DNA of 64,000 nucleotides from Escherichia phage A221 (ON862890.1); one strand, 5' to 3'; counted from the first letter of the stretch, positions 3,719 to 32,836 are shown. Notes: generated from the letters alone by a model not told the origin. Numbers and translations are program-made.

Positions 3719-3725
3719 GCTAAAT
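3719..3725 (+). promoter_or_regulatory. late-promoter-like motif CTAAATA(cccc)
   Basis: CTAAATAcccc 38 nt upstream of tailspike 2 start; recurs before seven other genes. Confidence 0.5.
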
Positions 3726-3762
3726 ACCCCATATTGGCAAATCCTCTATGGGGTATCTTCAA

Positions 3763-16698: not shown

Positions 16699-17406
16699 AT
16701 GAGTGCTATGTCAGAACGCCTATTATCCACCCTCAGTGCTATCCAAGCGCGGGATGAGGTCGCTCAAGAAGTCATGGAGAAGACCTCGCCTATAGCCGGA
16801 AAAGATTACGATCCGGATACAGGCGAATGGTTGGGTGAAAAGCCTGCGGGGTATGAGCCTGTGGTGTTTCCTCCTTCATTGGACCCAGAAGAGCTGAAGC
16901 CCAAGGAGTCTAAGGTTCCAGACTTCGAAGACACTGATGCCACCACCGACTACAAACGCATCCGTGATACGACTTATGCCATGCAGGAAGCCACGATGTT
17001 CATGATGGGACAGGCAGCCAAACTTGCGACGACGACTGAAGCACCCCGTGCTTTCACAGTCTTCAAAGAGTTGGGTGAACTCATGCGCGGTCTGAACAAA
17101 GACCTGATGGAGAACCAAAAAACTATCAAGGCGGTCACGGGCGACAGAGAGCCACCTCCTGGAGACGAAACAACCGTCGAGGTCACCACGTCCCCTGATG
17201 GCACAACCACGGTCAACGTCGGTAAACAGGCCAGGTCTTCCCGTGATCTACTGAAGACCATCGAAGACGCCCGTAAACGTGCTGAAGAACGTGCTGCAGC
17301 GAAAGCTGCGTCCAAAGGACCTGATCCCGAAGAAGATGTAATCGACGTTCAGGCGGAGCCACAGCCGAAGGAAGAAGGTGAAGACGATGGCGTATCAGAA
17401 GCGTGA
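16699..17406 (+). CDS. gp16: terminase small subunit (T4 gp16-like)
   Basis: Track codon 1 is TTG; ATG at 16699 with ggaga RBS; central DYKRIRD...MQEATMFMMGQAAKLATTTE resembles T4 gp16; directly precedes large terminase. Confidence 0.55.
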   Translation: MSAMSERLLSTLSAIQARDEVAQEVMEKTSPIAGKDYDPDTGEWLGEKPAGYEPVVFPPSLDPEELKPKESKVPDFEDTDATTDYKRIRDTTYAMQEATMFMMGQAAKLATTTEAPRAFTVFKELGELMRGLNKDLMENQKTIKAVTGDREPPPGDETTVEVTTSPDGTTTVNVGKQARSSRDLLKTIEDARKRAEERAAAKAASKGPDPEEDVIDVQAEPQPKEEGEDDGVSEA

Positions 17407-19597
17407 TGTAGAATACGCCCCGCTCAAGACGGGGTTTAAGACAGAAGACGTCAGACTGCGTATGGACCAAACGTTCATGCGCAAGCCGTCTGTGCGTGCA
17501 CCTCGTGTGGAGTTGATGCTAACCGACGAACAAGAATCGGAGTTCGTCGAGTGTGCGATGGACGCCCATTACTTCGCCGCCAACTACTACAAGATCACGA
17601 CCATCGATAAAGGCTTCATCCTCTTTGACATGCACGATTACCAGAAGCAGTTGTTCCATGACTTCCAGGACTATCGATTCAATGCGGTCGTCCAGGCTCG
17701 TCAGTCTGGGAAATGTGTAAAAGGTGACACGCTTGTCACAGTTTACGATACTCTCAGCCAAGAGCAGTTGCTCCTGACCATAGGGGAGCTTCACAGCCGC
17801 TTCGAGGACGTCAACCACGCTTTGCCGCTGAATACCATTGGCAACCATGACAAGTTCGTGGACAGCCGCTTCGGCAAGCGTTACTTTGTGCAATCCGATA
17901 GTGGCTGGGTTCCGGTTATCGCAGCGCATAAGACGAAGAAATATGCGGAATTCGTTATTGTGACTGTTACTGGGCGGCGAATTAACGTGGCCGACGAACA
18001 TATATTCTTCACTCCGGAAATGAAGGAGATATTTGCCAAAGACCTGAATGCTGGGTCATACATCATGACGTCAGAAGGTCCAGAAGAAATCCGTGAGGTT
18101 TGGCAGACTGGTGAGACGCATCACATGTATGACCTACAGGTGAAATCTAGTGATCAGCGCTACTACACCAACGGCTTCCTCAGCCACAACACGACAGTCG
18201 TGGCAGCGTTCCTGCTCTGGTATGCGATGTTCCACTCCGACAAAGAGATCGCAGTACTGGCGAACAAAGAGAAGCAGGCGATTGAAATCCTAGATCGTAT
18301 TCGCAAAGCATATCAAGATTTGCCATTCTTCCTCCAACAGGGTTGTGAGAAGTTCGGTTCCACGCTGATCGAGTTCGAAAACGGATCAAAGATCTACGCC
18401 TATGCGACATCTTCCGACTCCATCCGTGGTCGATCTGTATCTCTCCTGTATGTGGACGAAGTGGCGTTCATTGAAAACGACTTTGAATTCTGGGAGTCTA
18501 CATTCCCGGCGATTGCATCTGCAGAGACTTCACGTTGTATTCTGACCAGTACGCCGAAAGGTCAGCGCGGGTTGTTCTACGACATCGTCACCAAGGCGAA
18601 CCCAGAACATCCACAATACAACGACTTCAAGCTCACAGAGGTCCCATGGTATCGTGTTCCAACGTACACCAAAGATCCAGACTGGGAATCCAAACAAAGG
18701 GCGAAGCTGGGTGATGCACGTTTCGATCAAGAATTCGGTATTAAGTTCCGTGGTTCTGTGGGATCACTGATACCTGCCAAGTGTCTGGACAAGATGACCT
18801 CGAAGCTGTATCAGGAGCCGAACGAGTTCACCAAGATTTATCACGACTACGATCCTAAACGCATCTATATGGGTATCGCAGATACAGGCAAGGGTGTCGA
18901 AGGGGATTATTCTGTGCTGACCATTATCGACATCACAGACTATCCTCACAAGATCGCAGCCAAGTATCGAAATAACACGATACCTCCAATGATGTATGCG
19001 TACACAATCGCCGATATGGGTGAGAAGTATGGAACGTGCCCGATGCTAGTCGAGACTAACAACGACGTGGGTGGTCAGGTAATCACAATTCTATACCAGG
19101 AAATTGAATATCCCGAGATCATATTCACTACAACAGATACCAAGGGTACAGGCAAGAGAATCGGTGGTCGCCGCCCTGAGCCTGGTATCAATACCAACAA
19201 GAAGGTGCGCACAAACGGCTGCGCCAACCTGAAAGCCCTGATTGAACGTGAAATGCTGGTGATAGATGACCAGGACACGATAGATGAACTCAGTACATTC
19301 GTATGGACTGGGACAAGGTATGAAGCCGATGATGGTTGTCATGATGACTGTGTAATGCCCCTCGTGTTGTATGCATGGGCGGTGAAACAAGAATGGTTTA
19401 GTGATCTCACCAATTCAAATATCTCTGCGGACATGAGAGGACGGTTGTCTGCGATGGAAGAATCACAGATGCTACCATTTGGGGGTATGATGACGACGCC
19501 AGATCCTCACTCTGTGGAGAACATCCCAGGGTTCGGTGGAATTCAGGTTTATGATGAACGCTCTGGTATGTCTATGGAAGAATGGCTGAGACGGTGA
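17387..19597 (+). CDS. gp17: terminase large subunit (T4 gp17-like), intein-containing
   Basis: DYQKQLFHDF...ARQSGK[intein]TTVVAAFLLW...IEFENGSKIYAYATSSDSIRGRSVSLLYVDEVAF matches T4 gp17 ATPase around an interrupted Walker A; track start 17378 is GTG, ATG at 17387. Confidence 0.9.
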   Translation: MAYQKRDVEYAPLKTGFKTEDVRLRMDQTFMRKPSVRAPRVELMLTDEQESEFVECAMDAHYFAANYYKITTIDKGFILFDMHDYQKQLFHDFQDYRFNAVVQARQSGKCVKGDTLVTVYDTLSQEQLLLTIGELHSRFEDVNHALPLNTIGNHDKFVDSRFGKRYFVQSDSGWVPVIAAHKTKKYAEFVIVTVTGRRINVADEHIFFTPEMKEIFAKDLNAGSYIMTSEGPEEIREVWQTGETHHMYDLQVKSSDQRYYTNGFLSHNTTVVAAFLLWYAMFHSDKEIAVLANKEKQAIEILDRIRKAYQDLPFFLQQGCEKFGSTLIEFENGSKIYAYATSSDSIRGRSVSLLYVDEVAFIENDFEFWESTFPAIASAETSRCILTSTPKGQRGLFYDIVTKANPEHPQYNDFKLTEVPWYRVPTYTKDPDWESKQRAKLGDARFDQEFGIKFRGSVGSLIPAKCLDKMTSKLYQEPNEFTKIYHDYDPKRIYMGIADTGKGVEGDYSVLTIIDITDYPHKIAAKYRNNTIPPMMYAYTIADMGEKYGTCPMLVETNNDVGGQVITILYQEIEYPEIIFTTTDTKGTGKRIGGRRPEPGINTNKKVRTNGCANLKALIEREMLVIDDQDTIDELSTFVWTGTRYEADDGCHDDCVMPLVLYAWAVKQEWFSDLTNSNISADMRGRLSAMEESQMLPFGGMMTTPDPHSVENIPGFGGIQVYDERSGMSMEEWLRR
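17714..18190 (+). other. mini-intein (159 aa) inserted in the terminase Walker A P-loop
   Basis: Insert begins CVKGDTLVTV, ends ...TNGFLSHN, followed by Thr; flanking sequence reconstitutes QSGK-TT P-loop; no endonuclease domain evident. Confidence 0.75.
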
Positions 19598-19607: not shown

Positions 19608-19649
19608 TCTTTCAAATTGAGCGAAACTCTACAGAGAAGGAATAAGATT

Positions 19650-21545
19650 ATGGCAACTCAAAGCTTCAGCGTTGCGCCGTCCGTACAGTGGACTGAGCGT
19701 GATGCCACGCTTCAGACGTCTCCATCCGTTGTTGTTCAGGGTGCGACTGTCGGCAAATTCCAATGGGGTGAAGCAGAACTCCCTGTGTTGGTCACTGGTG
19801 GCGAAACTGGTCTGGTGAAGAAATTCTTCAAGCCAAACGATGCAACTGCCACCGACTTCTTAGTGATTGCTGACTTCCTGTCTTACAGCTCTGTTGCATG
19901 GGTGACCCGTGTGGTCGGTCCGGCGGCACGCAACGCTGTAACCAAAGGTCAGACTGCAATCCTTATCCGCAACAAATTAGACTTCGAAACTGCGTCCCCA
20001 TCTGCGTCTATTACCTGGACAGGCCGCTATGCTGGCTCTCTGGGTAACGACATTGCTGTGAACATCTGTGATGCTGCGCTGTTCCCGACCTGGGAATTCC
20101 GTAACAACTTCGCATATGCTCCACAGGATGGCGAGTACCATATCGCCATCGTTGACAAAGTAGGTCGCATCACCGACTCTTCTGGCGCTGTTAGTCAGGT
20201 TGACCGTATCTCTGTATCCGGTACTGCCACCGCTGCTGGTTCCATCTCTGTTGCTGGTGAAGCCGTGGCGTACACTGACGCTGACACTCCGGCGACTCTG
20301 GCGACAAAGATCGGAACCGCGCTGACGTCTCTGTCTGAAGTGTATTCTTCTGTTGTCGTGAAGTCCAACACCGTCACCGTCACTCACAAAGCAATCGGTC
20401 CTCAGGCTGCGACTGCGATTGTTCCAGACGCGAATGGTATGACTGCTACCGCTGCCGTCACCACTGTTGGTGCTTCCGGTACGATCATCGAGAAGTATGA
20501 ACTGGTGCAGACCGCTCAGGGTTCTAAGAAATCTGATGGATCCAATGCGTACTTCAAAGACGTGATCAACGGCACCTCAAATTGGGTGTACACCTTCGCC
20601 ACTACCCTGGCTGCTGGTGTCATTGAACTCGAAGGTGGTGTAGACGATTACACTGGGAACCGTGTTGCGGCTATCCAGGCACTGAACAACGCCGAAGCGT
20701 ATGATGCCAAGCCAGTGTTCGGTTTCTGTGAAGAACTGATTGAGCAGCAGGCACTGATCGACCTGTCCACTGAGCGTAAAGACACAGTGTCCTTCGTGTC
20801 TCCTCTTCGCGATACGGTCGTCGGAAACCGTGGCCGTGAGATGGATGATGTTGTGGCCTGGCGTGAAAGCCTTGTTCGCGACTCCTCCTACTTCTTCATG
20901 GATGACAACTGGGCGTATGTGTACGACAAGTACAACGACAAAATGCGTTGGATTCCGGCTTGTGGCGGCACCGCAGGTGTTTGGGCGCGAAGCATTGAAA
21001 TCGCGGGTATCTACAAGTCTCCAGCGTTCCACAACCGTGGTAAATACAACAACTATAATCGAATGGCGTGGTCTGCGTCTTCTGATGAGCGTGCTGTGTT
21101 GTATCGCAACCAGATCAACAGCATCGTCACCTTCTCCAACGAAGGCATCGTGTTGTACGGCGACAAGACTGGCCTGACCCGCCCATCTGCGTTCGACCGC
21201 ATCAACGTTCGTGGTCTGTTCATTATGGCAGAGCAGAACATCGCAGCCATCGCCAAATACTACCTTGGTGAAAACAACGATGCATTCACTCGTGGGTTGT
21301 TCAGCAACGCTGTCCGCCCATATATCCGCCAGTTGGCCAACATGGGCGCGATCTATGACGGGATGGTGAAGTGTGACGAGGACAACAACACCGCTGATGT
21401 TATCGCTGCGAACCAGATGGTCGCGGGTATCTGGCTGAAACCAGAATACTCCATCAACTGGGTGTATCTGGACTTTGCTGCGGTACGTCCGGACATGGAG
21501 TTCAGCGAGATCGAAACTGGCGGTGGCATCGTAGCCGCTTCCTGA
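19650..21545 (+). CDS. gp18: tail sheath protein (T4 gp18-like)
   Basis: N-terminal VQGATVGKFQWGEAELPVLV matches the gp18 GKFQWG signature; ATG 19650 (track start 19617 is TTG); CTAAATA at 19601. Confidence 0.8.
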   Translation: MATQSFSVAPSVQWTERDATLQTSPSVVVQGATVGKFQWGEAELPVLVTGGETGLVKKFFKPNDATATDFLVIADFLSYSSVAWVTRVVGPAARNAVTKGQTAILIRNKLDFETASPSASITWTGRYAGSLGNDIAVNICDAALFPTWEFRNNFAYAPQDGEYHIAIVDKVGRITDSSGAVSQVDRISVSGTATAAGSISVAGEAVAYTDADTPATLATKIGTALTSLSEVYSSVVVKSNTVTVTHKAIGPQAATAIVPDANGMTATAAVTTVGASGTIIEKYELVQTAQGSKKSDGSNAYFKDVINGTSNWVYTFATTLAAGVIELEGGVDDYTGNRVAAIQALNNAEAYDAKPVFGFCEELIEQQALIDLSTERKDTVSFVSPLRDTVVGNRGREMDDVVAWRESLVRDSSYFFMDDNWAYVYDKYNDKMRWIPACGGTAGVWARSIEIAGIYKSPAFHNRGKYNNYNRMAWSASSDERAVLYRNQINSIVTFSNEGIVLYGDKTGLTRPSAFDRINVRGLFIMAEQNIAAIAKYYLGENNDAFTRGLFSNAVRPYIRQLANMGAIYDGMVKCDEDNNTADVIAANQMVAGIWLKPEYSINWVYLDFAAVRPDMEFSEIETGGGIVAAS

Positions 21546-21553
21546 TAAACAAA

Positions 21554-21581
21554 CCCCGCTTCGGCGGGGTTTTAAATTTTT
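21554..21581 (+). terminator. intrinsic terminator
   Basis: CCCCGC-ttcg-GCGGGG followed by ttttaaattttt after sheath gene. Confidence 0.65.
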
Positions 21582-21612
21582 CCCAGATTATTTTATTGAA
21601 TTACTTTACTTC

Positions 21613-21632
21613 TTCAATAACTCACGTATAAT
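21613..21632 (+). promoter_or_regulatory. TTCAATAA-N6-TATAAT promoter-like element
   Basis: cttcaataactcacgtataattc upstream of gene 21681; same box recurs at about 31835, 32095, 33094, 33116, 44591, 51063 and 56769. Confidence 0.4.
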
Positions 21633-21680
21633 TCTAAACATAAGCAGTACGACACCAACTTGAAACGAAGGAACTATATC

Positions 21681-22037
21681 ATGACCAAGACCGAAATTAA
21701 CGCTATCCTGAAAGAAATCGGCCTCTGTAACCTGAAACGCCGCATCAATCCTTACCAGCCTGCAAAGCCAGTACGCGACAGTCAGGGAAAGATGATAAAA
21801 GGGATCTACTGTGCAGATGTTGGTCCAATGACGGTGACCAGTCCACACATTGACAGATTTAACGCTATTGTTGGGGAGTTTTGTGGTAAGGTTCTGGGTA
21901 AACTAGCTAATGATTTATGCTCCCCAGATACCAAAGTTGTAGCTTTCGGGAGCCACCTCGTCACCTTCCACCTCACCAGCTTCCGTGCCCACGGTGATTA
22001 TTATGTGTATTATGCTCAGGTTGGCATTCGCAAATAG
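21681..22037 (+). CDS. hypothetical protein
   Basis: 118 aa; ATG at M8 of track ORF (codon 1 TTG); RBS gaaggaa; preceded by TTCAATAA-N6-TATAAT element; followed by bidirectional terminator. Confidence 0.4.
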   Translation: MTKTEINAILKEIGLCNLKRRINPYQPAKPVRDSQGKMIKGIYCADVGPMTVTSPHIDRFNAIVGEFCGKVLGKLANDLCSPDTKVVAFGSHLVTFHLTSFRAHGDYYVYYAQVGIRK

Positions 22038-22044
22038 TAGTTTA

Positions 22045-22070
22045 CCCCGCTGAGGCGGGGTTTTAGTTTT
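22045..22070. terminator. bidirectional terminator between convergent genes
   Basis: CCCCGC-tgag-GCGGGG followed by ttttagtttt; between gene 21681-22037 (+) and endonuclease gene (-). Confidence 0.6.
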
Positions 22071-23847
22071 CCAGTTCATACCGGATAAGACCACACCCCC
22101 AGATACGCCCCAACCCGGCTTCTATCGCCAGCATATCCTCTGTTTTACCTTCTACATCGTATCCAAGTTTAAGGAATTTCTCTTTCCTGAAATTGAATTT
22201 GTGTATACGTGAGCCATAGCCCGGAGTCACATATTTGTAATCAGGGGGAAGGATTTCCTTTTCAACAAATCCGTTATTCAGGTAAACATTTTTCAGACGA
22301 CTGACAACACAACGATCACCAAAAGAATATACTGTCTCACCCCGATGTCGAGCGATATAATATTTCAGCAAGCGTGAGAATGCGCCATGACAATTGTTAG
22401 AAGCAAATCTCACCAATTCAATACCATGCGTCCGTTTGGTAAACAACATCACCGCCTGGATATTCCCAGTTTTGTCTACAAGGTGTATATAATCTGTCGC
22501 CACCACACCACCTTGTATATGGAATCGGTCGAGAAAGTCCTTGGACGTCCTATAGGAGCCTTCTAAAATGATATGTTGGCGAGCGTATGACAATGGTTTC
22601 CCTATCCCCAATTTTGCTTTAAGGAGTGATTTAACCACTTCCCGTTTGTCACGCCACTCATCTTCCCAGATATGGATTAATTGAATACCCTGGGCTTCAC
22701 AGTACATGGTCTTTTCAAGATGGTAGTCTTTGTATCGATGTTTCTCTGTATGCCAGTACAAGCCGTTAAATTCTATTGCCAACTTATGTTCTGGGCAGTA
22801 TATGTCTATCTGGCGTGTGGTCACCCTTCCGTCGAACATTTTACCTCTGAGGACGGAGAAATTACCAGATTCGCATATAACACCCAATGAATCCAGGTAT
22901 GAACATATTTCTATTTCTGGCTGCGTTTGGCTTTGGCTGCTGGGGTACGTGAAAGAGTTCCTATATTCTTCAGAAGAGAAATAGTGAGGTACGCCGTATT
23001 TTTCTTTTGAAATGATCCTGGTATTGACCTGGCTTCTATCCCATATAGCCTTTACCTTCAACGGATAATCAACCCCATATTTTAAGACGCATGTTTTCTT
23101 TCTCTTTTCTATAATGGAATTGAGGAACATTGGATGATCCACACCATAGATCTTCCTCCAAGTCTCAATCACCCTTTCCCTCACTTCTGGCATTTTCATG
23201 ACGTGTGATACGCCATAGCGTTCCATGACGGAAGCAGCCACTCTGTCCTTTATAACATCAGACTTCATAGGGTGGTCGACCCCATATTTCTTAAGGACAG
23301 TTTCCCGCGACTTTTGTTTTACTTCTTCCAGTTGGAATGTGTTGGCTACGCCATATTTCTCTGATATGGCGTTTTCTAGGTTGACCCGTTCTGAGCCTCC
23401 CGCCTTCATTGATTTTCGTTGGCATTCTTCGGAACAAAACTTTTTGTATCTGGGTGGTTGGGCTTCCATTTCTAAGCCAACGTCAGCACCGCAAGTGACA
23501 CACTGCGACTTCGGAATATCGTACAGCCAAGCAGTTATCGCTTGTGGTTCTTCTAATAGGTCGTTGTGTGACACCACGTATCCAACAACATCAACCCCAG
23601 TATGGGCCGTGAGTAGGGGATGAGAGATAAGTTTGTAGTTCAACGAACCATCTTTCTTCCTGAGTTTACTATCAACCCAAGAGCGGCATTCGGTTTCGGT
23701 CGTCGGGATGTTATCCAACAAACCCGGATTGCGTTTCATCGTTCCCAGCATGAATGATTTACATTCGTCACTACAATACAACGCAGCCTTCCTGGTTGGG
23801 GTGAACGGTTTGTGGCAGCATGAACAATTTTTATCGGGGAATGGCAT
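22063..23847 (-). CDS. putative homing endonuclease, Hef-like (zinc ribbons + KYGV repeats + PD-(D/E)XK-like nuclease domain)
   Basis: Minus strand; ATG at 23847 with GAGGA RBS (track codon 1 is GTG); CxxC pairs; six imperfect repeats with core KYGVxHPM; EFNGLYWHTE...IHIWEDEW restriction-endonuclease-like motif; paralog of 29838-31826. Confidence 0.65.
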   Translation of the reverse strand: MPFPDKNCSCCHKPFTPTRKAALYCSDECKSFMLGTMKRNPGLLDNIPTTETECRSWVDSKLRKKDGSLNYKLISHPLLTAHTGVDVVGYVVSHNDLLEEPQAITAWLYDIPKSQCVTCGADVGLEMEAQPPRYKKFCSEECQRKSMKAGGSERVNLENAISEKYGVANTFQLEEVKQKSRETVLKKYGVDHPMKSDVIKDRVAASVMERYGVSHVMKMPEVRERVIETWRKIYGVDHPMFLNSIIEKRKKTCVLKYGVDYPLKVKAIWDRSQVNTRIISKEKYGVPHYFSSEEYRNSFTYPSSQSQTQPEIEICSYLDSLGVICESGNFSVLRGKMFDGRVTTRQIDIYCPEHKLAIEFNGLYWHTEKHRYKDYHLEKTMYCEAQGIQLIHIWEDEWRDKREVVKSLLKAKLGIGKPLSYARQHIILEGSYRTSKDFLDRFHIQGGVVATDYIHLVDKTGNIQAVMLFTKRTHGIELVRFASNNCHGAFSRLLKYYIARHRGETVYSFGDRCVVSRLKNVYLNNGFVEKEILPPDYKYVTPGYGSRIHKFNFRKEKFLKLGYDVEGKTEDMLAIEAGLGRIWGCGLIRYELEN

Positions 23848-23895
23848 AATAAATATCCTCACTTTGGAGTATTTTAACCCCCATTTATTTCAAAA

Positions 23896-23902
23896 CTAAA
23901 TA
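23896..23902 (+). promoter_or_regulatory. late-promoter-like motif CTAAATA
   Basis: 27 nt upstream of tail tube ATG 23929. Confidence 0.5.
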
Positions 23903-23928
23903 TTTACACTATTCAGAGGAGAACGACC

Positions 23929-24462
23929 ATGGCTACAGTTAATGAATTCAGAGCAGCTATGTCACGCGGGGGCGGCGTTCAGCGCCAACACCGTTGGCGT
24001 GTGACTGTTAACTTCCCTTCCTTCGTGGCTGGAAGCGATACCATCCGTGATGTTTCGCTGTTGGCGGTGACCACAAATACCCCAACAGGCCAGCTCGGGG
24101 AAATACTCGTCCCATGGGGTGGTCGTGAACTTCCATTCCCAGGTGACCGCCGCTTTGAAGCGCTGCCTGTGACGTTCATCAACGTCGTGGACAACGCTCC
24201 GTACAACGCATTCGAAGTCTGGCAGCAGTACATCAACGGCAGCAACAACAACCGTGCGTCTGCTAACCCAGATGATTATTTCCGTGATGTAATCATGGAA
24301 CTGTTGGATGCGAATGACAACGTCACCAAGACCTGGACCCTTCAGGGCACCTGGCCTCAGAACCTCGGTCAGCTGGAACTGGACATGTCTGCAATGGACT
24401 CTTATACTCAGTTCACTGTTGACCTGCGTTACTTCCAGGCCATCTCAGACAAGTCTCTCTAA
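23929..24462 (+). CDS. gp19: tail tube protein (T4 gp19-like)
   Basis: 177 aa; LPVTFINVVDNAPYNAFEVWQ and C-terminal LQGTWPQNLGQLELDMSAMDSYTQFTVDLRYF resemble T4 gp19; CTAAATA at 23896. Confidence 0.75.
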   Translation: MATVNEFRAAMSRGGGVQRQHRWRVTVNFPSFVAGSDTIRDVSLLAVTTNTPTGQLGEILVPWGGRELPFPGDRRFEALPVTFINVVDNAPYNAFEVWQQYINGSNNNRASANPDDYFRDVIMELLDANDNVTKTWTLQGTWPQNLGQLELDMSAMDSYTQFTVDLRYFQAISDKSL

Positions 24463-24528
24463 TGTCCTCAGTGCTGGGGGATCTTTATTCCCCCTCACTA
24501 ATTACAAGAAAATGTTGAGGACTTAATC

Positions 24529-26223
24529 ATGGCATTCGGTAATGGTGCATTCGGAAATGGGTTCTTCGGCCTGTTCGGTAGAGGCGGCAAAGTAGAAGCG
24601 CCGATTGATACTGACAAGATGGTCACGAACCAAGAAGAGAAGTTGCTTTCAAAAGCGACTGTTGTTGCGCTGGACGATTCTCAGGATGGTTCCATCATCC
24701 TCCAGGGCGGCGCGAACACATTCAATTTCGTTGGTGTTGAGAATGAGTTGCTCAACGTCAAACAGCTGGTCGAAGAGTACCAATCTATGGCTCAGCAGCC
24801 TGAGATTCGTAAGGCTGTGGATATCATTGTCAACGACGTCGTCACTTGTGAAGAGGAAGAGACTCCTGTAACCATCAACCTGGAAAAGGTAGATGGCATC
24901 ACAGACGAAGTCAAAGAGAAGATCACTGACGCATTCAAAGAGATCATGCATCTCCTTGACTTTGACAACACAGCGTATCAGAAGATCCGCAAATGGTATA
25001 TTGAAGGCCGTCAGGCATTCCACGTTGTAGTGGACCCGAAGAACAAGAAAGCGGGTATCGCCAAACTCATCATGATGGACTCACGCTGTATCCGTCCTGT
25101 ATACATCGTTCAAAAGGCGATGCGCGACGGTATCGAAGTCATCAATGACGTAAAACTTCAATACTACTACAACCCGAACTACAACCGCAACCAATTCACT
25201 GGCCAGTCCGGTACGTCTCAGAACTTCCAACCGTCACAGCAAGAGCTGGTGTTTGATGATGAGAGCATAGTGTATCTGGACAGTGGTGAAGAGCCTCTGG
25301 CGAATGGGGTTGTACCAAGCCTGCTGAACCCAGCTATCCGTCCCCTGAACAACCTTGTTACAACTGAAGATGCAACGGTGATCTATGCGATCACACGTGC
25401 TCCTGAGAAGCGAGCGTTCTATCTCGACGTGGGTACGCTGGGTAAGAAGTCGGCCGAAGAATACATGCAAGCCATGATGGGCAAATTCAAGAACCGCCTG
25501 GCGTATGATCGCACCACTGGTAAGGTGGCTGGTAACACTCATTTGATGGGTATCGCTGAGGACTACTGGCTACCACGTCGCGAAGGGCAGAACGCAACCG
25601 AGATCTCCAACGTAGGCGGTGGTGATCAACTGGGTCAAATGGATCATGTGGTATACTTCCGAGAGAAGCTCTACGAGGCTCTGATGATCCCTAAGAGCCG
25701 CCTGCAAGAGGAAGGTTCCATCAACATCGGTGGTTCCAATCTTGCTGAAATCACACAGGAAGAACTGCGCTTCAACAAGTTCTGTGCGAGCCTGCGCCGT
25801 CGTTATTCTTCTGGTATATTCCTGGAACTTCTGCGCCGTCAACTGATATTGAAAGGCATTACAGATCAGGCTGACTGGAATGAGAAGATCAAGCCGTTCG
25901 TCAAGTTCGAATTCACTTCTGACAGCTTCATCCGTGAACAACAAGAGAACGAAATCTTGTCACAGCGTATGGCGGCTCTCGGTCAGATCGAACCATATAT
26001 CGGCACTCTCTTCTCTATCGATTTTGCTCAACGCAATTTGCTGCGTATGTCCGATGAAGACATCAAAGACCAGCAAGAGAAAATCGCGAAAGAGAAGAAA
26101 GAAGGCAAATACCCTGAAGTGCAGGCAGATGAGTCCGGCGGCTTCGGCAGCGGGGAAGTCAGTCCACTGAAATTCAGACCTAACGTCATCCCAGCGACTA
26201 ATCCTCCTGGTGGTGAAGAATAA
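24529..26223 (+). CDS. gp20: portal protein (T4 gp20-like)
   Basis: 564 aa; QKIRKWYIEGRQAFHVVVDPKNKKAGIAKL and IYAITRAPEKRAFYLDVG resemble T4 gp20; position between tube and protease. Confidence 0.8.
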   Translation: MAFGNGAFGNGFFGLFGRGGKVEAPIDTDKMVTNQEEKLLSKATVVALDDSQDGSIILQGGANTFNFVGVENELLNVKQLVEEYQSMAQQPEIRKAVDIIVNDVVTCEEEETPVTINLEKVDGITDEVKEKITDAFKEIMHLLDFDNTAYQKIRKWYIEGRQAFHVVVDPKNKKAGIAKLIMMDSRCIRPVYIVQKAMRDGIEVINDVKLQYYYNPNYNRNQFTGQSGTSQNFQPSQQELVFDDESIVYLDSGEEPLANGVVPSLLNPAIRPLNNLVTTEDATVIYAITRAPEKRAFYLDVGTLGKKSAEEYMQAMMGKFKNRLAYDRTTGKVAGNTHLMGIAEDYWLPRREGQNATEISNVGGGDQLGQMDHVVYFREKLYEALMIPKSRLQEEGSINIGGSNLAEITQEELRFNKFCASLRRRYSSGIFLELLRRQLILKGITDQADWNEKIKPFVKFEFTSDSFIREQQENEILSQRMAALGQIEPYIGTLFSIDFAQRNLLRMSDEDIKDQQEKIAKEKKEGKYPEVQADESGGFGSGEVSPLKFRPNVIPATNPPGGEE

Positions 26224-26260
26224 TTCGACTAAGTATAGAAAACATTTAGAGGATATGAAC

Positions 26261-26431
26261 ATGGCTGCTATCGATCTGGTAAAAGCAATCATCGCTGGTG
26301 ATACTGATGCCGCTGCTGCTGAATGCGAAATGGAGCTGTCCGCTCGCGCCCAAGAACTGGTCCAGCAGGGTACTGAATATGTCTTGAACTCCCTGAGCCA
26401 AGACATGGGTCCTTTCGGCGACGACCAGTAA
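26261..26431 (+). CDS. small acidic head-associated protein (gp67-like by position)
   Basis: Track ORF 26210 starts at GTG inside portal gene; ATG 26261 with agagga RBS gives 56 aa; position between portal and protease. Confidence 0.3.
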   Translation: MAAIDLVKAIIAGDTDAAAAECEMELSARAQELVQQGTEYVLNSLSQDMGPFGDDQ

Positions 26432-26443
26432 GAGGAATGTATC

Positions 26444-26749
26444 ATGGAAATCGAAGAAGTTGCAACGTTCGCTGATTTCCTGGCTTCCCGCATGGATGAG
26501 CAGAAAGTCATTGACAAGGTGAACGCAAAAGGCAAACGCCGTCGCCGTCTGCAGTGTGCTCCTGGTTTCAAACTGTCTGCGGATGGTTCCCGTTGTGAGG
26601 TGATGGTCGCCAGTGAGCGCCGTACTCGCAAGCTGGGCAACCGCAAGGCGATCCGAGCCAAGAAACGCATGGGTATGGGATACCAACGCAAAATCGAGCG
26701 TCGTAAGAAAAAAGCAATGAAGTTCCGTCGTATGATGGGACTGAGTTAA
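26444..26749 (+). CDS. highly basic small protein (prohead core/internal protein-like by position)
   Basis: 101 aa; Arg/Lys-rich C-terminus; strong RBS; located in head morphogenesis block. Confidence 0.4.
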   Translation: MEIEEVATFADFLASRMDEQKVIDKVNAKGKRRRRLQCAPGFKLSADGSRCEVMVASERRTRKLGNRKAIRAKKRMGMGYQRKIERRKKKAMKFRRMMGLS

Positions 26750-26756
26750 GGAGCGA

Positions 26757-27425
26757 ATGATGAAACTGTTGCGTGAGATCACTGCGATAGGGAAAGACCT
26801 TCAGATTGGTGAAGCGGCCACGGCTACTGGCGGCAGAGCCATGTACATCGAAGGTCCATTCGTGATGTGTAACCAGGTGAACCGTAATGGTCGCAACTAC
26901 GATCTCCAAAAGGTGGGTATCCCTGCTGTCGAAGCATACGACAAAGAGTATATCCAGGATCGTCGTGCAATCGGTGAACTCAAGCATCCGGATTATCCTT
27001 TCCCCGATATCGAACACGCTGCACTCAAAACCGAATCTTTGCGCTGGGAAGGCACCAACGCTATCGGTCGAGCGCGGATCCTGAATACACCGAAAGGTCA
27101 GATCATTCGTGCTCTGGCTGAAGCAGACTTCAACCTGGCCGTGTCTACACGTGGCCTTGGTGAGACCAAGTCAGTGAACGGCTATGATGACGTTCAACCC
27201 GGCTTTATGCTCACTGCTGTTGATGCAGTCGACCGTCCTTCTGGACAAGTTTGTTATGTAAAGGCTGTGAGCGAATCTGTGGAATGGCAGCTTGATGAAT
27301 CTTCAGGAATTTGGGTTCCTAAGGACATTAAGGGGCATGTGGTCGATTCATTGGTGAAAACCAATATTCAGTTAGAAGACGACTTCCTGCGCCGCCTCGA
27401 TATCGCATTGAAACATCTGGGCTGA
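26757..27425 (+). CDS. gp21: prohead core protease (T4 gp21-like)
   Basis: 222 aa; MYIEGPFVMCNQVNRNGRNYD and GELKHPDYP segments resemble gp21-family proteases; synteny portal-protease-scaffold-capsid. Confidence 0.7.
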   Translation: MMKLLREITAIGKDLQIGEAATATGGRAMYIEGPFVMCNQVNRNGRNYDLQKVGIPAVEAYDKEYIQDRRAIGELKHPDYPFPDIEHAALKTESLRWEGTNAIGRARILNTPKGQIIRALAEADFNLAVSTRGLGETKSVNGYDDVQPGFMLTAVDAVDRPSGQVCYVKAVSESVEWQLDESSGIWVPKDIKGHVVDSLVKTNIQLEDDFLRRLDIALKHLG

Positions 27426-27436
27426 ATTCAGCCTCA

Positions 27437-27443
27437 CTAAATA
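27437..27443 (+). promoter_or_regulatory. late-promoter-like motif CTAAATAc
   Basis: 28 nt upstream of scaffold ATG 27471; followed by CTGAA/TTCAG inverted repeat. Confidence 0.5.
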
Positions 27444-27470
27444 CTGAAAATCGTTCAGAAGGAAACAATC

Positions 27471-28319
27471 ATGAAACCTGAATTGCAAAAACTGTTTGAG
27501 GGCGTTAACGGCCTCAGCACCGACTTCCTGGATAAAGTGTCTGGTCTGCTGGAATCTAAAGTAGAAGCCGCTCGCCTGACCGCTATTCAAGAAACCGAAA
27601 ATGCTGCCAATATTGAGCGCCTGCGTCTGGTTGAAGCTCATCAGGCTGAGATTGCTCAGCTGAAAGAGTCTCACTTGATGGAAATCGCGACCAAAGTCGA
27701 TGGCTTCCTGAATGCTGTTGTAGAAGAGTGGGCTAACAAGAACGCTCCTGCTATCGACGCTCAGATCAAACGTGAAGCGGCTGAAAATCTGCTGACTGGC
27801 CTGACTGGTGTTCTGAAAGAAGCTGGTATTAACTTTGCCACCGACGAAAACGGCCAGATCGCTGCGCTGACTGCCCGCCTGGCCGAAGCAGAACAACGTG
27901 CTGCGATTGCCGAAAGCGAAAACCGTCAAATCAAAGAAGCCGCGAATGCGACTCTGCGTGACTCTGTGATCGCCCGTGTCTGTGAAGGTATGGTCGACAC
28001 CAAGAAAGCAACGGTTGTCAATCTGCTGGAAGCTGTGCAGTTCACCACCGAAAGCGAATTCGCTTCCCGCGTACACACCTTCCGCAACCTGGTAGAAGGT
28101 AAGTCCGTGAAGAAAGAAGGTGATGACGATGACGATGACTTCCAGGACAAAGTCGGCGGTAAAGACGGCGATGACGACAACAAAGATGTTAAAGCCGAAG
28201 GCAAAAAGCCTAAGAAAGAAGACGATGAAGACGATGAAGATGAAACAGACAAAGAGCTGAAAGAATCTATCAAGCGTCAGTTGGCCGACTATAATCGTCG
28301 CTTCGGCATCAACGGCTAA
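27471..28319 (+). CDS. gp22: prohead scaffold protein (T4 gp22-like)
   Basis: 282 aa, alanine/glutamate-rich coiled-coil composition with acidic Asp-rich C-terminal tract; immediately upstream of capsid gene; CTAAATA at 27437. Confidence 0.6.
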   Translation: MKPELQKLFEGVNGLSTDFLDKVSGLLESKVEAARLTAIQETENAANIERLRLVEAHQAEIAQLKESHLMEIATKVDGFLNAVVEEWANKNAPAIDAQIKREAAENLLTGLTGVLKEAGINFATDENGQIAALTARLAEAEQRAAIAESENRQIKEAANATLRDSVIARVCEGMVDTKKATVVNLLEAVQFTTESEFASRVHTFRNLVEGKSVKKEGDDDDDDFQDKVGGKDGDDDNKDVKAEGKKPKKEDDEDDEDETDKELKESIKRQLADYNRRFGING

Positions 28320-28410
28320 TTTTAGCAGCCACAGCCCTCGAAAGGGGGCTTGATTTTGAACTACTAAGTAATTTCAACTTAACTGAATATCAATGTAAGG
28401 AATGACCATC

Positions 28411-29733
28411 ATGGCTAAGAAACTTGTTACCGAACAAATGCGCGAGCAGTGGCTGCCAGTTCTTCAGAAAGAATCTGAAAGTATCCAGCCGCTTTCTGCC
28501 GAAAACGTTGCCGTCCGTCTGCTGCAAAACCAGGCTGAGTGGAACGCCAAAAACCTGGGCGAATCCGACGCTCCTGGCTCCGTGAACGCCTCTGTGGGCA
28601 AATGGCAGCCAGTCCTGATCGACATGGCCAAACGTCTGGCTCCGGTCAACATCGCGATGGACTTCTTCGGTGTTCAGCCGCTGTCTGGTCCTGACGGTCA
28701 GATCTTCGCACTGCGTGCTCGCCAGGGCGTTGCAGACGGCTCCAACACTGCCCAGTCCCGCGCTGAGCTGTTCATGAACGAAGCCAACTCCGGTTACTCC
28801 GGTGACGATACTGCACAGGCTGGCGACCCATCTGGCTTCTCCCAGACTGAGATCGAAGGTTCCGGCGCTGCTACCACCACCATCGGTAAAGGCATGTCAA
28901 CTTCCGACGCTGAACTGCTGGGCACCACCACCAACCCATGGGCACGTGTTGGTATCACCGTTCAGAAAGCAACCGTGACTGCGAAGTCTCGCGGCCTGTA
29001 CGCTGACTACAGCCACGAACTGCGCCAGGACATGATGGCGATCCACGGCGAAGACGTTGACAGCATCCTGTCCGACGTGATGGTAACTGAAATTCAGGCA
29101 GAGATGAACCGTGAGTTTATCCGCACCATGAACTTCAGCGCAGTACGCTTCAAAAAATTCGGCACCAACGGTATCGTAGACATCTCCACTGACATCTCCG
29201 GTCGTTGGGCGCTGGAAAAATGGAAGTACATGACTTTCATGCTGGAAGTTGAAGCGAACGGCATCGGTGTTGACACCCGTCGTGGTAAAGGCAACCGTGT
29301 TCTGTGCTCCCCGAACGTAGCATCCGCTCTGGCGATGTCCGGCATGCTGGATTATGCTCCGGCGCTGCAGGAAAACACCAAGCTGGCGATTGATCCGACT
29401 GGTCAGACCTTCGCTGGTGTGCTGTCGAACGGTATGCGTGTATACATTGACCCGTATGCAGTAGCAGAATACATCACCCTGGCATACAAAGGTGCAACCG
29501 CGCTGGATGCTGGTATCTTCTTCGCACCATACGTGCCGCTGGAAATGTACCGCACCCAGGGTGAAACCACCTTCGCACCACGCATGGCGTTTAAAACCCG
29601 CTACGGCATCTGTGCTAACCCATTCGTTCAGATCCCAGCGAACCAGGATCCACAGGTCTATGTGACTGCGGATGGTATCGCCAAGGACACCAACGTGTAT
29701 TTCCGTAAAGGGCTGATCAAAGGCCTGTTCTAA
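28411..29733 (+). CDS. gp23: major capsid protein (T4 gp23-like)
   Basis: MDFFGVQPLSGPDGQIFALRARQG matches the gp23 FDICGVQPMNSPTGQVFALRA region; ATG 28411 preferred (aagga RBS) over in-frame ATG 28402. Confidence 0.9.
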   Translation: MAKKLVTEQMREQWLPVLQKESESIQPLSAENVAVRLLQNQAEWNAKNLGESDAPGSVNASVGKWQPVLIDMAKRLAPVNIAMDFFGVQPLSGPDGQIFALRARQGVADGSNTAQSRAELFMNEANSGYSGDDTAQAGDPSGFSQTEIEGSGAATTTIGKGMSTSDAELLGTTTNPWARVGITVQKATVTAKSRGLYADYSHELRQDMMAIHGEDVDSILSDVMVTEIQAEMNREFIRTMNFSAVRFKKFGTNGIVDISTDISGRWALEKWKYMTFMLEVEANGIGVDTRRGKGNRVLCSPNVASALAMSGMLDYAPALQENTKLAIDPTGQTFAGVLSNGMRVYIDPYAVAEYITLAYKGATALDAGIFFAPYVPLEMYRTQGETTFAPRMAFKTRYGICANPFVQIPANQDPQVYVTADGIAKDTNVYFRKGLIKGLF

Positions 29734-29761
29734 TCGAACAGTTGTCCTTAACCCTGACAAA

Positions 29762-29789
29762 CCCCGCCAACGTGCGGGGTTTTCTTTTG
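29762..29789 (+). terminator. intrinsic terminator after capsid gene
   Basis: CCCCGC-caacgt-GCGGGG followed by ttttcttttg. Confidence 0.65.
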
Positions 29790-29802
29790 AAACAAACCAG
29801 CA

Positions 29803-29808
29803 TATAAT
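29803..29808 (+). promoter_or_regulatory. TATAAT -10-like box upstream of Hef-like endonuclease gene
   Basis: catataattctaaa downstream of capsid terminator, 30 nt before ATG 29838; similar tataattctaaa follows the TTCAATAA box at 21627. Confidence 0.35.
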
Positions 29809-29837
29809 TCTAAAATAATAATAGGTAGGATTAGATC

Positions 29838-31826
29838 ATGATTCATATATGCCGGACATGCAAAACCTCATTCGTCAATGCCCAGTCAAAGGCCGTCTAC
29901 TGTAGTGTTGATTGCAGAACCTTTTACCAAACAGTTGGTATCAAATTCTCCCCAGAGTTAATGTCGGACGCCAAATTTATTCAAACTGAAGATGACTACA
30001 AAGACTTCATCCGTGAATATTTCTATATGAAGAATGGCAACCTGAATTACCAACTACTATCTTCACCCCTGTTGTCATCTTACCTTGGCGTAGACCCCCT
30101 CAAATATGCCAACCAGCACAACTCTGAAGAATCCGTGAACACCCGTGTATTGGTCTGGTTACACGACGTCAAACCAACACCTTGTATCACCTGCGGTGCT
30201 AGAACTTCTGTCGAGATTAAGAAGTCTATCCCATCCTACCGGAAATATTGTTCGGAGGAATGCTATGCCCAATCAATGAAGTTGGGTGGTGAAGCCCGTA
30301 AAGTCTTGGACAAGACAATACTGGACAAATATGGCGTGGAAAACGTGTTCCAGGATGAATCCATAAAAGGGAAGGCACGGTTGACCATGCTGCAGCGTTT
30401 CGGCGTAGAACACATTATGCAGTCTGAAGAGGGGCGGCAGCTATTCAGAGATTCCGTTATGGAAAAATATGGGGTTGAGCACCCGATGCAGTTGGAAGAG
30501 ATCAAACGGCGCGCATGGGATACCCTCGGTGCTCGGTCTTGGTATGCTACTTCAGAAGGTAAAGCTGCGCGGGAGAAGGCATTTGGTGGATACCAAGGCG
30601 GTCATCCGATGCGTGACAGGGGTGTTATAGAGAAGATAATCTCAAACAATCTCAAGCGGTATGGTGTTGAATGGCCTGCTCAAGACCCTGTTATCAAAGC
30701 TAAAGTTGTAGACACCATGTTGGAAAAATATGGTGTGTCCCACCCATTACAAATACCAGAAGTGAAAGCCAGAGTCAAACAAAGTCACCAAACAAAGTAC
30801 GGTAGATTCTATTTCAATAGACATGAGGTTATGTTATTGGCTTCGGAACGTTCTAAAGAGACATGTGTTAGAAAATATGGTGTACCATATGCGTTGCAGA
30901 ACAAATCCATGTGGGAACACATTACGTCATCCCTTAATTCGAAATCAAAACCAGAAATAGAAATATCTGATTGGCTCACTTCAATGGGGGTTGCCCACAA
31001 ATGCTCCGACTTCACCCTCCTAAACAATATGAATTGCCAGGACGGTGGAACTCGACGCCAGATAGACATCTATTGCCCAGAACACAAACTGGCAATAGAA
31101 TTTAATGGCCTGTATTGGCACAGTGAGATACACAAATATCGCCGTTATCATCTCGAAAAGACAGAGGCATGTGAAGCACAAGGCGTTCAGCTGATACACA
31201 TCTGGGAAGATGAGTGGCATAACAACCCAGAGATCGTGAAAGGGTTGCTGGCTGCCAAACTCGGGATCAAGAAGCCATCCGGGTACGCCCGTCAGTGTTA
31301 TGTAGAGGAAGGTAAGAAGTCGGATATTCTAGAACTCCTGGCCTCTCAACACATACAGGGCACCATTCATTCGGCCACGCATTACCTTCTCCTCAGAGAT
31401 AAGAGAGACAACCGGGTTCGGGCTGTCATGACCTTTATCAAACGTGTGGTGAAGGGGGAACAGTGTATGGAACTTACGAGGTTTGCCTCCGACGGCATTC
31501 ACGGGGCGTTCTCTAAACTGCTGGCGTACTACAAGGAACATCTCTGGGATGGCGTGAAGACTTTCTCCTTTGGCGATAGGTGTGTTGTTAGTCGGTTGTC
31601 CAACATTTATCTTTCTCACGGGTTCGTCGAGGAAGAAATACAAGACCCGGATTACAAATATCACAAACCAGGGACTCTCATGCGGGAGCACAAGTTTGGA
31701 TTCAGAAAGGCAGACTTTGCTCGCATGGGCTATGGCGTAGAAGGTAAGACAGAAGATCAGTTAGCAACCGAAGCCGGGCTGGTCAGGATTTGGAATTGTG
31801 GACTGATCAAATATGTCTTGAACTAA
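29838..31826 (+). CDS. putative homing endonuclease, Hef-like (paralog of 22063-23847)
   Basis: 662 aa; N-terminal CxxC zinc ribbons; seven KYGVxHPMQ-type repeats; EFNGLYWHSE...IHIWEDEW nuclease motif; C-terminal about 200 aa clearly homologous to the minus-strand copy; own TATAAT-like box at about 29803. Confidence 0.65.
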   Translation: MIHICRTCKTSFVNAQSKAVYCSVDCRTFYQTVGIKFSPELMSDAKFIQTEDDYKDFIREYFYMKNGNLNYQLLSSPLLSSYLGVDPLKYANQHNSEESVNTRVLVWLHDVKPTPCITCGARTSVEIKKSIPSYRKYCSEECYAQSMKLGGEARKVLDKTILDKYGVENVFQDESIKGKARLTMLQRFGVEHIMQSEEGRQLFRDSVMEKYGVEHPMQLEEIKRRAWDTLGARSWYATSEGKAAREKAFGGYQGGHPMRDRGVIEKIISNNLKRYGVEWPAQDPVIKAKVVDTMLEKYGVSHPLQIPEVKARVKQSHQTKYGRFYFNRHEVMLLASERSKETCVRKYGVPYALQNKSMWEHITSSLNSKSKPEIEISDWLTSMGVAHKCSDFTLLNNMNCQDGGTRRQIDIYCPEHKLAIEFNGLYWHSEIHKYRRYHLEKTEACEAQGVQLIHIWEDEWHNNPEIVKGLLAAKLGIKKPSGYARQCYVEEGKKSDILELLASQHIQGTIHSATHYLLLRDKRDNRVRAVMTFIKRVVKGEQCMELTRFASDGIHGAFSKLLAYYKEHLWDGVKTFSFGDRCVVSRLSNIYLSHGFVEEEIQDPDYKYHKPGTLMREHKFGFRKADFARMGYGVEGKTEDQLATEAGLVRIWNCGLIKYVLN

Positions 31827-31830: not shown

Positions 31831-31870
31831 ACATTTCAATAACGGGGCGAGAGGTATTATTGCCCTCTCT
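31831..31870 (+). repeat. TTCAATAA-hairpin cassette, copy 1
   Basis: tttcaataacggggcgagaggtattattgccc, about 90% identical to copy at 32091-32130. Confidence 0.7.
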
Positions 31871-31889
31871 ATTAATCGAGGAAATCACA

Positions 31890-32090
31890 ATGAGCCTGAA
31901 AGAAGATTCTGTAAACACCACAGTCGCCAACTCCACTTTCCGTGAGTGGCACGACGTATTATGCAAAGTCGCGAAAAGCCAGGGCGGTTCAGCCGCCGAC
32001 GCCGACGCCTGGCGTGATGATTACGAAGCAGGCAAGACCCCTCGCCAGTCTTGGGAAGATGAATGGGGTTGGGAAGAACAAGAAGGATAA
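31890..32090 (+). CDS. hypothetical acidic small protein
   Basis: ATG at M11 of track ORF (codon 1 TTG); gagga RBS; preceded by TTCAATAA-hairpin cassette. Confidence 0.35.
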   Translation: MSLKEDSVNTTVANSTFREWHDVLCKVAKSQGGSAADADAWRDDYEAGKTPRQSWEDEWGWEEQEG

Positions 32091-32130
32091 CAGTTTCAAT
32101 AACGGGGCGAGAGGTATTATTGCCCCGTCT
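32091..32130 (+). repeat. TTCAATAA-hairpin cassette, copy 2
   Basis: tttcaataacggggcgagaggtattattgccccgt with perfect ACGGGGC/GCCCCGT stem. Confidence 0.7.
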
Positions 32131-32150
32131 ACTTATCCGAGGGTTGTACC

Positions 32151-32375
32151 ATGTACTTGAAAAAGATCGTGAAGAAGCCGAAAGCCGGTGTTGCCGAGGT
32201 GTGCCTCATCGAGGTTTACGTTGATTCTTGTAACAATGAGCAGTGTTACTTCATGGTCGAGACGATGGTGTATGTTCCAGCCTCTCACCTGAACCGTGAT
32301 TTCGTCACAACCGAAAATGTCGTCCGCTGGGAGATTGCAACGCAGTCCGATATCGACGAACACAACATTCTTTGA
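32151..32375 (+). CDS. hypothetical protein
   Basis: 74 aa; ATG start; preceded by second copy of the TTCAATAA-hairpin cassette. Confidence 0.35.
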   Translation: MYLKKIVKKPKAGVAEVCLIEVYVDSCNNEQCYFMVETMVYVPASHLNRDFVTTENVVRWEIATQSDIDEHNIL

Positions 32376-32392
32376 AAGGAAGGATCTATATC

Positions 32393-32836
32393 ATGTGTGA
32401 TAAGAATTTCATTTTCATTAGTCCCGCCAAGAAACAGTTCTTCCGTAGCTCCGTTGGGGACAAGGTGGAAGGTTTCCGTAAATTCAAAGATTATCGCCTG
32501 GCATGCGGTGATGTTGATTTTCAGAGCTTCGACAATGATCGCCAGGATTTGAACGATGAGGGTTGGACAGAAGTTCCATCCCCACAGTTTATCGATGTCA
32601 AGCTGTACTACATGAAGGACAGTGGGAAGTATTATTCAGAGGGTGTGATCAAAATCAACCGTGGGGAGGCCGAGGCCGAACCTGCTAAGTCCTGGATGGA
32701 GACTGTGGATAAAATCCGCTATCTGCTCGACTCAGGCAATTTGCCTGGTTTGGTTAAAGGTGCCCGGTACGAGGTCTTCGTGACCGGAGAAGGGCATCCA
32801 GGTGGTTATCCACAACTGTTCCGCATTAACAACTGA
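32393..32836 (+). CDS. hypothetical protein
   Basis: ATG at M8 of track ORF (codon 1 TTG); RBS gaaaggaagg; 147 aa. Confidence 0.4.
   Translation: MCDKNFIFISPAKKQFFRSSVGDKVEGFRKFKDYRLACGDVDFQSFDNDRQDLNDEGWTEVPSPQFIDVKLYYMKDSGKYYSEGVIKINRGEAEAEPAKSWMETVDKIRYLLDSGNLPGLVKGARYEVFVTGEGHPGGYPQLFRINN

Follow-up and report, generated by a model that had tools for sequence, protein, structure and literature searches.

Two related genes in opposite orientation bracket the tail-tube and head genes of Escherichia phage A221 (ON862890.1), which raises the question of whether they work as a pair on the genes between them or are separate elements that have come to rest on either side. The window analysed here, a 64,000-nucleotide stretch of this Vi1-like phage (Ackermannviridae), had been given a sequence-only reading that described them as paralogous Hef-like endonuclease genes and suggested that the inverted pair could drive mobility, exclusion or inversion of the head module. 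Open reading frame (ORF) calling recovered both genes with the coordinates and strands proposed there, HefA at 22063-23847 on the minus strand (594 amino acids) and HefB at 29838-31826 on the plus strand (662 amino acids). They are very probably two independent, free-standing homing endonuclease genes (HEGs) of the Hef family, lodged in two intergenic slots. On this reading they do not function jointly, and they enclose the head module for no other reason than that each has settled at a permissive intergenic position beside essential, conserved late genes.

The order of the genes is sheath (19617-21545), HefA, tube (23929-24462), and so on to capsid (28402-29733) and HefB directly 3' of it, which agrees with the placement given in the sequence-only reading both on our ORF map and in the annotation of Escherichia phage PC3. 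The bracketed head and tail-tube module (23929-29733, plus strand) comprises tube, portal, small ORFs, prohead protease, scaffold and major capsid protein, as taken from the ORFs and from the annotation of PC3, LHE287 and LIMEstone1, and is common to 290 phage records. Escherichia phages PC3 and PH4 (Ackermannviridae, Aglimvirinae) match the region at 98.9% identity over 11 kb; HefA and HefB each share 99.7% amino acid identity with their PC3 counterparts, both of which are annotated as ‘homing endonuclease’ (PC3_000016, PC3_000025). Hef genes at both positions were thus already known from the PC3 annotation and from the 2012 catalogue of LIMEstone1, a phage with four Hef-like genes, in which F-LimVII and F-LimVIII are listed as ‘Hef-like’ free-standing HEGs (Adriaenssens et al., PMC3296691). 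HefA is the orthologue of F-LimVIII, found in the same slot between sheath and tube and on the same (minus) strand with 89.6% amino acid identity, while HefB is a rare long allele in the post-capsid slot where F-LimVII lies. The probable start of HefA is ATG 23847, with a GAGGA Shine–Dalgarno upstream; formally the ORF reaches back to GTG 23862, but this codon falls within that same Shine–Dalgarno.

By BLASTP, HefA and HefB share 42% identity over about 590-660 amino acids (E 8e-163), with 58% across the nuclease and C-terminal half and 37% across the N-terminal half; tblastn found no third Hef copy in the window, only these two. Both match PHROG 3339 ‘homing endonuclease’ (HefA E 3e-192, HefB E 8e-151), and the genes matched by tblastn in RaK2 and in Campylobacter, Yersinia and Vibrio phages bear the annotation hef or Hef-like. 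Homology to a named Hef was tested through the Acj9 representative, a Hef-type gene between nrdA and nrdB (30% identity, 451 amino acids, E 7e-39), and runs through the repeats, the nuclease and the C-terminal domain. The facts on phage U5 come from a review (Edgell 2010, PMC2988022, citing Sandegren et al. 2005): the Hef (‘homing endonuclease-like function’) of this T4-related phage cleaves nrdB and is reported to be a homing enzyme specific for its site. Taylor et al. assigned phage Hef-type proteins to the Vsr-like EDxHD homing family (PMC3239194). Like the U5-type Hef (between nrdA and nrdB), HefA and HefB are free-standing, intergenic and next to an essential gene, but they differ from the Acj9/U5 type in having a structural-gene rather than an nrdB neighbourhood, more repeats and only the 30% identity given above. 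The paralogy claimed in the sequence-only reading is borne out by the BLASTP match, and the Hef-like endonuclease identity by the Acj9 homology together with the nuclease fold.

Both proteins contain a Vsr-like (EDxHD-type) restriction-fold nuclease domain, encoded at 22603-22929 on the minus strand in HefA (residues about 307-415) and at 30945-31268 on the plus strand in HefB (residues about 370-477). The EFNGLYWH...IHIWEDEW motifs that had been read as a nuclease signature occur in HefA and HefB alike. Direct comparison of HefB with 3r3p by phmmer aligned KLAIEFNGLYWHS with KLAIEVNGVYWAS at an E of only 0.49, a weak match that made a family profile necessary; Pfam matches to Vsr-like restriction-fold families fell below threshold, as did the NCBIfam Vsr matches. 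Taken together, the domain searches do find a nuclease fold. Residues D348, E359, H366, H376 and K379 of HefA are invariant in the family, and the catalytic columns are conserved in HefB. Judged by alignment only, conservation relative to I-Bth0305I extends to four of the five EDxHD positions, with the glutamate of PEIEI, D348, N361 (the ‘x’) and H366 aligned with E170, D196, N208 and H213, and the additional acidic residue E359 present beside them. I-Bth0305I, the EDxHD prototype (Taylor et al. 2011, PDB 3r3p), is intron-encoded, whereas HefA and HefB are free-standing; it binds DNA through N-terminal NUMOD-type motifs, in place of which the Hef proteins have zinc ribbons and DUF7487 repeats, and it lacks the C-terminal GNAT domain that they carry.

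The N-terminal part of each protein contains two CxxC...CxxxC motifs. In HefA these are zinc ribbon 1 (23761-23826, minus strand, residues 8-29; C8/C11/C25/C29) and zinc ribbon 2 (23422-23502, minus strand, residues 116-142; C116/C119/C138/C142), and in HefB C5/C8/C22/C26 and C116/C119/C138/C142; C138 and C142 are conserved in at least 90% of the family. There follows an array of KYGV repeats with a strict 23-residue period, comprising six helix-loop units in HefA (22930-23391, minus strand, residues about 153-306) and seven units plus a degenerate stretch at residues 233-273 in HefB (30294-30944, plus strand, residues about 153-369). The arrays score well above the threshold of Pfam DUF7487 (HefA 90.0 bits, HefB 109.3 bits, cut-off 27), a match that chance would not produce, and an AlphaFold2 (AF2) model places one 15-residue helix in each HefA unit. 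The repeat consensus, [IV]KEKxKxTNLEKYGV[ED][NH]PxQSxE, puts basic residues on the helix, and from this basic K/K/K/T/K face a putative DNA-binding array is a reasonable inference. A PDB search with the DUF7487 repeats gave no structural match, and a literature search on DUF7487 found nothing. While the zinc ribbons and the six and seven repeats of the sequence-only reading stand in both proteins, its view that the architecture is unusual for a homing endonuclease was overstated: such repeats form a Pfam family and are the norm among relatives, with 554 units in the 120 homologues listed (2-15 per protein).

Each Hef protein joins this Vsr-like nuclease to a Mom-like domain, which we regard as the under-appreciated point of the locus. 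The domain is encoded at 22066-22602 on the minus strand in HefA (residues 416-594) and at 31269-31823 on the plus strand in HefB (residues 478-662), where the motifs HIQG, ELTRFAS, HGAFSKLL, FGDRC and IYLSHGF are all present. The sequence-only reading had rightly noticed that the last 200 residues of the two proteins are similar, but it missed their relation to Mom of phage Mu, a GNAT-fold, Gly-tRNA-dependent N6-adenine carbamoylmethylase (PDB 8bv8; PMC13219725). The fold of the Hef C-terminal domain is of GNAT type, with Mom as the closest match. With the family's own members set aside, the first named stand-alone match among viral models is a Mom protein (E 2.6e-8), and the family homologue P0028 passes Pfam Mom (PF25680) with 28.9 bits against a cut-off of 27.1, this Pfam family being carried by eight of the 120 among the homologues listed. 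HefA, HefB and the isolated HefA C-terminal domain all stay below the PF25680 gathering threshold, and the domain profile matches Mu Mom weakly, at 15 bits when that is the only target and with an hhalign probability of 57%.

Mom activity depends on H58, R111, S124, D149, R151 and Y159 (PMC13219725). The weak Mom alignment pairs H443, R480, S491, D511 and Y522 of HefA with H58, R111, S124, D149 and Y159, and these five are conserved in 99, 100, 89, 98 and 99% of 115 family members, respectively; the equivalent of R151 is uncertain, the adjacent position being arginine in 55% of members. On this alignment, the Hef domain would share these residues with Mu Mom. It also has an insertion between the last strands of the GNAT fold, where Mom has its essential helix-turn-helix-like insert, but differs from Mom in its marginal sequence similarity, in falling under the Pfam cut-off and in lacking a clear R151 counterpart. 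It resembles as well the fusions of Mom to a restriction-fold nuclease (REase) described in jumbo phages, for which a modification-plus-restriction role was predicted (Iyer et al. 2021, PMC7824862), in that the GNAT domain is joined to a restriction-fold nuclease. A literature search on Hef-like proteins and GNAT found no paper linking Hef to Mom–REase fusions. The Mom-like domain would most likely either aid DNA binding or mark chemically the phage's own target.

The nuclease plus Mom-like architecture is very widespread, with at least 3,346 metagenomic proteins at E<=1e-5, some of them on contigs of 0.5-0.7 Mb. Matches to the family occur in 415 phage records, including Lak megaphages, RaK2-type jumbo phages and Thermus phages, and Campylobacter phages have 12 family places per phage.

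What identifies HefA as a HEG is its patchy presence at a fixed site, the existence of empty and decayed alleles, and a similarity that is out of step with that of its flanks. A scan of IMG/VR with the portal protein gave only five loci, of which two duplicate GenBank phages, and the occupancy statistics are therefore drawn from a phage BLAST collection. Counting an orthologue where at least 80% of the gene was covered, HefA occurs in 25 of 290 related records, spread across two subfamilies, in Aglimvirinae and in Kuttervirus, with intact copies in ZQ1, LIMEstone-type phages and three Salmonella Kutterviruses. Empty sites do occur, for in MK-13 the slot between sheath and tube (slot 1) is a spacer of only 78 bp. 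In YX22 and fGh-Ecl02, the same slot holds a GIY-YIG gene on the plus strand (loci L005 3267-3980 and L007 3282-3980), so that two unrelated nuclease families use one intergenic site. LHE287 retains a HefA remnant from which the counterpart of window positions 22177-23636 has been deleted. The suggestion of mobility or exclusion in the sequence-only reading is standard for such genes and plausible here; the empty sites, the alternative occupant, the remnant and the patchy distribution fit mobile elements.

The decayed LHE287 copy, at about 3605-3826 of its locus (L002), corresponds to window positions 22063-22176 and 23637-23862; the internal deletion of about 1.46 kb leaves the first 74 and the last 38 or so codons. 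About 10 bp at the deletion junction are common to both alignment ends and may be microhomology.

Similarity at slot 1 departs from that of its surroundings. Relative to Salmonella phage Mutine, which belongs to a different subfamily, the cassette of a small ORF plus HefA is 88-93% identical where aligned, as against 74-87% for the flanking genes (sheath 82%, tube 87%, portal 74%). HefA is also a mosaic: its repeat region has 98% identity to LIMEstone1 and scarcely aligns with Mutine, whereas its C-terminal domain has 93% identity to Mutine and 84% to LIMEstone1. A sharp recombination boundary, in the form of a step in identity at HefA among close relatives, was looked for and not found.

The post-capsid site (slot 2) is occupied by several alleles. 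Among 50,697 phage records, the full-length gene for the 662-residue HefB was found only in PC3 and PH4 besides the window. ZQ1, LHE287, YX22, LIMEstone1 and fGh-Ecl02 have Hef paralogues of 490-508 amino acids, and in MK-13 and Mutine a pair of small ORFs takes the place of a Hef gene. The LIMEstone1 occupant, F-LimVII (491 amino acids), shares slot, strand and family with HefB, which is longer and has more repeats; identity between them is about 54% over the C-terminal 375 or so residues and about 30-34% in the N-terminal part. Adjacent to this slot, mismatches are two to five times more frequent in the last 400 bp or so of the capsid gene and the spacer than elsewhere in the module, a divergence spike that spans the last 460 bp or so upstream of HefB. 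Capsid 3' haplotypes sort by the slot-2 allele, with 5-13 differences within carriers of the 490-residue form and 15-29 between classes, a pattern that is consistent with co-conversion. Together with the mosaicism of HefA, the spike suggests that the Hef genes may be boundaries of exchange. The changes private to the window at the capsid 3' end (29427-29610) are all synonymous; they could be immunity mutations against HefB or hitch-hikers, which look the same by sequence alone.

We propose that, when such a phage shares a host cell with a relative lacking the HEG, its Hef protein would bind a long DNA target in that relative through the zinc ribbons and the 23-residue array, and that the Vsr-like nuclease would cut near the bound target. 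Recombinational repair from the HEG-carrying genome would then copy the HEG, along with some flanking structural-gene sequence, into the recipient. The outcome would be homing with co-conversion, otherwise called marker exclusion. Several observations weigh against this account. Slot 2 is Hef-occupied in eight of 11 relatives (by tblastn or blastn), a level of occupancy that could reflect long-standing residence and not active homing, and the co-conversion signal comes from six genomes, in all of which the capsid 3' end is variable. At the active site, Asp222 of I-Bth0305I is replaced in the Hef family by an invariant histidine (H376), followed by an invariant lysine, so the chemistry may differ from that of I-Bth0305I. 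The near-invariant Mom-type residues are left unexplained by a pure homing-endonuclease model. Finally, homing, cleavage and a target site are predictions for HefA, HefB and any other Hef of the Ackermannviridae.

If the inverted paralogues were recombination arms, they could invert or move the tube-to-capsid module as a unit, as the sequence-only reading had imagined. Such a role would fit their opposite orientation and a 78-nt patch with 85% complementarity, and inversion of modules between long inverted repeat regions is on record for Campylobacter phage CP21, although there it involves long arrays of 72-86-bp repeats and no Hef genes (PMC4546147). HefA and HefB, however, have a DNA identity of 65-85% in short patches (65-76% overall, in short blastn high-scoring segment pairs) and a longest exact inverted match of 19 nt, and the module lies in the same orientation relative to its flanks in all nine relatives that span both sites, whatever their HEG content. 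An inversion would also set the late structural operon against flanking transcription. On the strength of the inverted-repeat search, blastn between the genes, the exact-match length and synteny in the nine relatives, we reject the hypothesis of inversion or of a mobile cassette, which has next to no chance of being correct. We consider it very improbable, too, that the two genes are decaying or domesticated passengers without endonuclease activity, kept for terminators or promoters that their late neighbours need. The palindromic late-promoter-like element in the spacer between HefA and tube, the remnant allele of LHE287 and the finding that promoters embedded in T4 HEGs favour HEG retention (PMC2988022) all speak for such a history, but HefA and HefB are full length with all family-invariant nuclease and Mom-type residues intact, and MK-13 manages without either gene.

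The Mom-like domain points to a different role, as single-chain weapons of restriction and momylation, in which this domain would mark the phage's own adenines while the fused nuclease destroys host or co-infecting phage DNA that lacks the modification. The genes would then be primarily exclusion or anti-competitor systems, and mobile elements only secondarily, if at all. We hold this main rival to be possible but rather unlikely, and it stays in contention because the Mom-type residues are so strictly conserved, with counterparts of five residues essential to Mom kept in 89-100% of the 115 family members. It gains also from the GNAT fold being closest to Mom, from the above-threshold Pfam Mom match of P0028, and from the restriction and modification proposed for the jumbo-phage Mom–REase fusions (PMC7824862), the RaK2-type jumbo phages having homologues annotated ‘hef’. 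The distribution, however, is that of HEGs, with site-specific intergenic slots, sporadic presence, remnants and many paralogues (four in LIMEstone1, 12 places per Campylobacter phage), and the U5 Hef is reported to home in a site-specific way (PMC2988022). HefA and HefB themselves fall below the Pfam Mom threshold, with the hhalign probability for Mu Mom only 57%, and momylation would not in any case exclude homing. It further counts against such weapons that N6-carbamoylmethyl-adenine is not known to have been reported from Ackermannviridae DNA. Two independent HEGs thus remain our preferred reading. A more speculative form, which we think distinctly unlikely, is a three-part selfish machine in which the repeats set a long target, the nuclease cuts genomes lacking the HEG and an active Mom-like domain places an adenine mark on the element's own target. 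If true, self-immunity would come through chemistry instead of target-site mutation, in a one-polypeptide hybrid of HEG and restriction-modification system, and the 23-residue array would be a new, possibly re-targetable scaffold for DNA recognition.

As a pair of HEGs beside late genes, HefA and HefB have known counterparts. The sequence-only reading had pointed to segD of T4, which does lie between genes 23 and 24 and antisense (PMC2988022); HefB is likewise immediately downstream of the major capsid gene. SegD, however, is a GIY-YIG gene antisense to its neighbours, whereas here the antisense HEG is HefA, between sheath and tube, and both genes are of Vsr type. HEGs that flank essential genes have been described as ‘HEG-islands’ (Barth et al. 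2023, PMC10448857), a layout matched by Hef genes flanking essential morphogenesis genes, though that study covered the T5orf172 and IPA-HNH families, not Hef. The locus offers a natural series for HEG turnover beside essential late genes, with empty, GIY-YIG, intact Hef and deleted Hef states in slot 1 and three Hef alleles differing in repeat number in slot 2. The remaining interest nonetheless lies more in the repeat array and the Mom-like domain of the whole family than in the locus itself. In the literature searched, ‘Hef homing endonucleases’ and ‘Mom–REase fusions’ are handled apart, and Hef proteins are both; in the Hef family, conservation of the Mom-type residues equals that of the nuclease active site. 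Learning whether Hef modifies DNA, and which sequences the DUF7487 repeats recognise, could alter the understanding of a widespread family.

Turning to expression, the sequence-only reading had given each gene its own terminator and promoter-like signals. For the most part these are consensus matches only; the better supported signal is a palindromic TAAATA/TATTTA element in the spacer between HefA and tube (23895-23908, both strands), ACTAAATATTTAC, which is identical to a LIMEstone1 sequence whose annotation gives putative late promoters (-10 signals) for both strands and which may likewise constitute divergent late promoters here. Just past the HefA stop, a terminator scan found a GC-rich hairpin (22044-22061) that is a second copy of the sheath terminator (21551-21572); LIMEstone1 has a single equivalent hairpin, annotated as a terminator on the HefA strand. 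Upstream of HefB, at 29759-29816 on the plus strand, a consensus scan gave a capsid terminator hairpin (29759-29782) followed by a sigma-70-like match, TTGAAA-18-TAAAAT (29787-29816).

Elsewhere in the window, the large terminase gene (17378-19597) contains a mini-intein-like insert of 159 amino acids (17714-18190; Cys113...His-Asn271, then Thr), which interrupts the Walker A loop between ARQSGK and TTVVA and itself runs from C to SHN. It scores 28.7 bits with Pfam Intein_splicing, under the cut-off of 35.8. None of the loci fetched has an intein-less terminase allele, the terminase genes of the relatives being equal in length.

Small genes lie close to both Hef genes. Between the two copies of the sheath hairpin (21553-21579 and 22044-22070, a 27-nt direct repeat, 85% identical) is a segment (21580-22043) with a small ORF at 21660-22037; the segment is found in Mutine, ZQ1 and LHE287, and is present in the window but missing from LIMEstone1. 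About 80 bp of it (21605-21685, with TTTACT-16-TATAAT) recur 5' of other small genes, and in LIMEstone1 their counterpart coincides with an annotated early promoter; the whole looks like a shuffled promoter-ORF-terminator cassette. Downstream of HefB, a 44-nt direct repeat (31834-31877 and 32094-32137, 91%) flanks an ORF of 66 amino acids (31890-32090), the two together forming another presence/absence cassette, with LHE287 and ZQ1 having one copy of the repeat and lacking the ORF. The protein of this ORF had no family match, and the Pfam search gave no family for either small flanking ORF. A 24-nt stretch that takes in the ribosome-binding site and start codon, TTGAAACGAAGGAACTATATCATG, occurs at 21660-21683 and 32372-32395 with 92% identity, ahead of two unrelated small ORFs that lie 10.7 kb apart.

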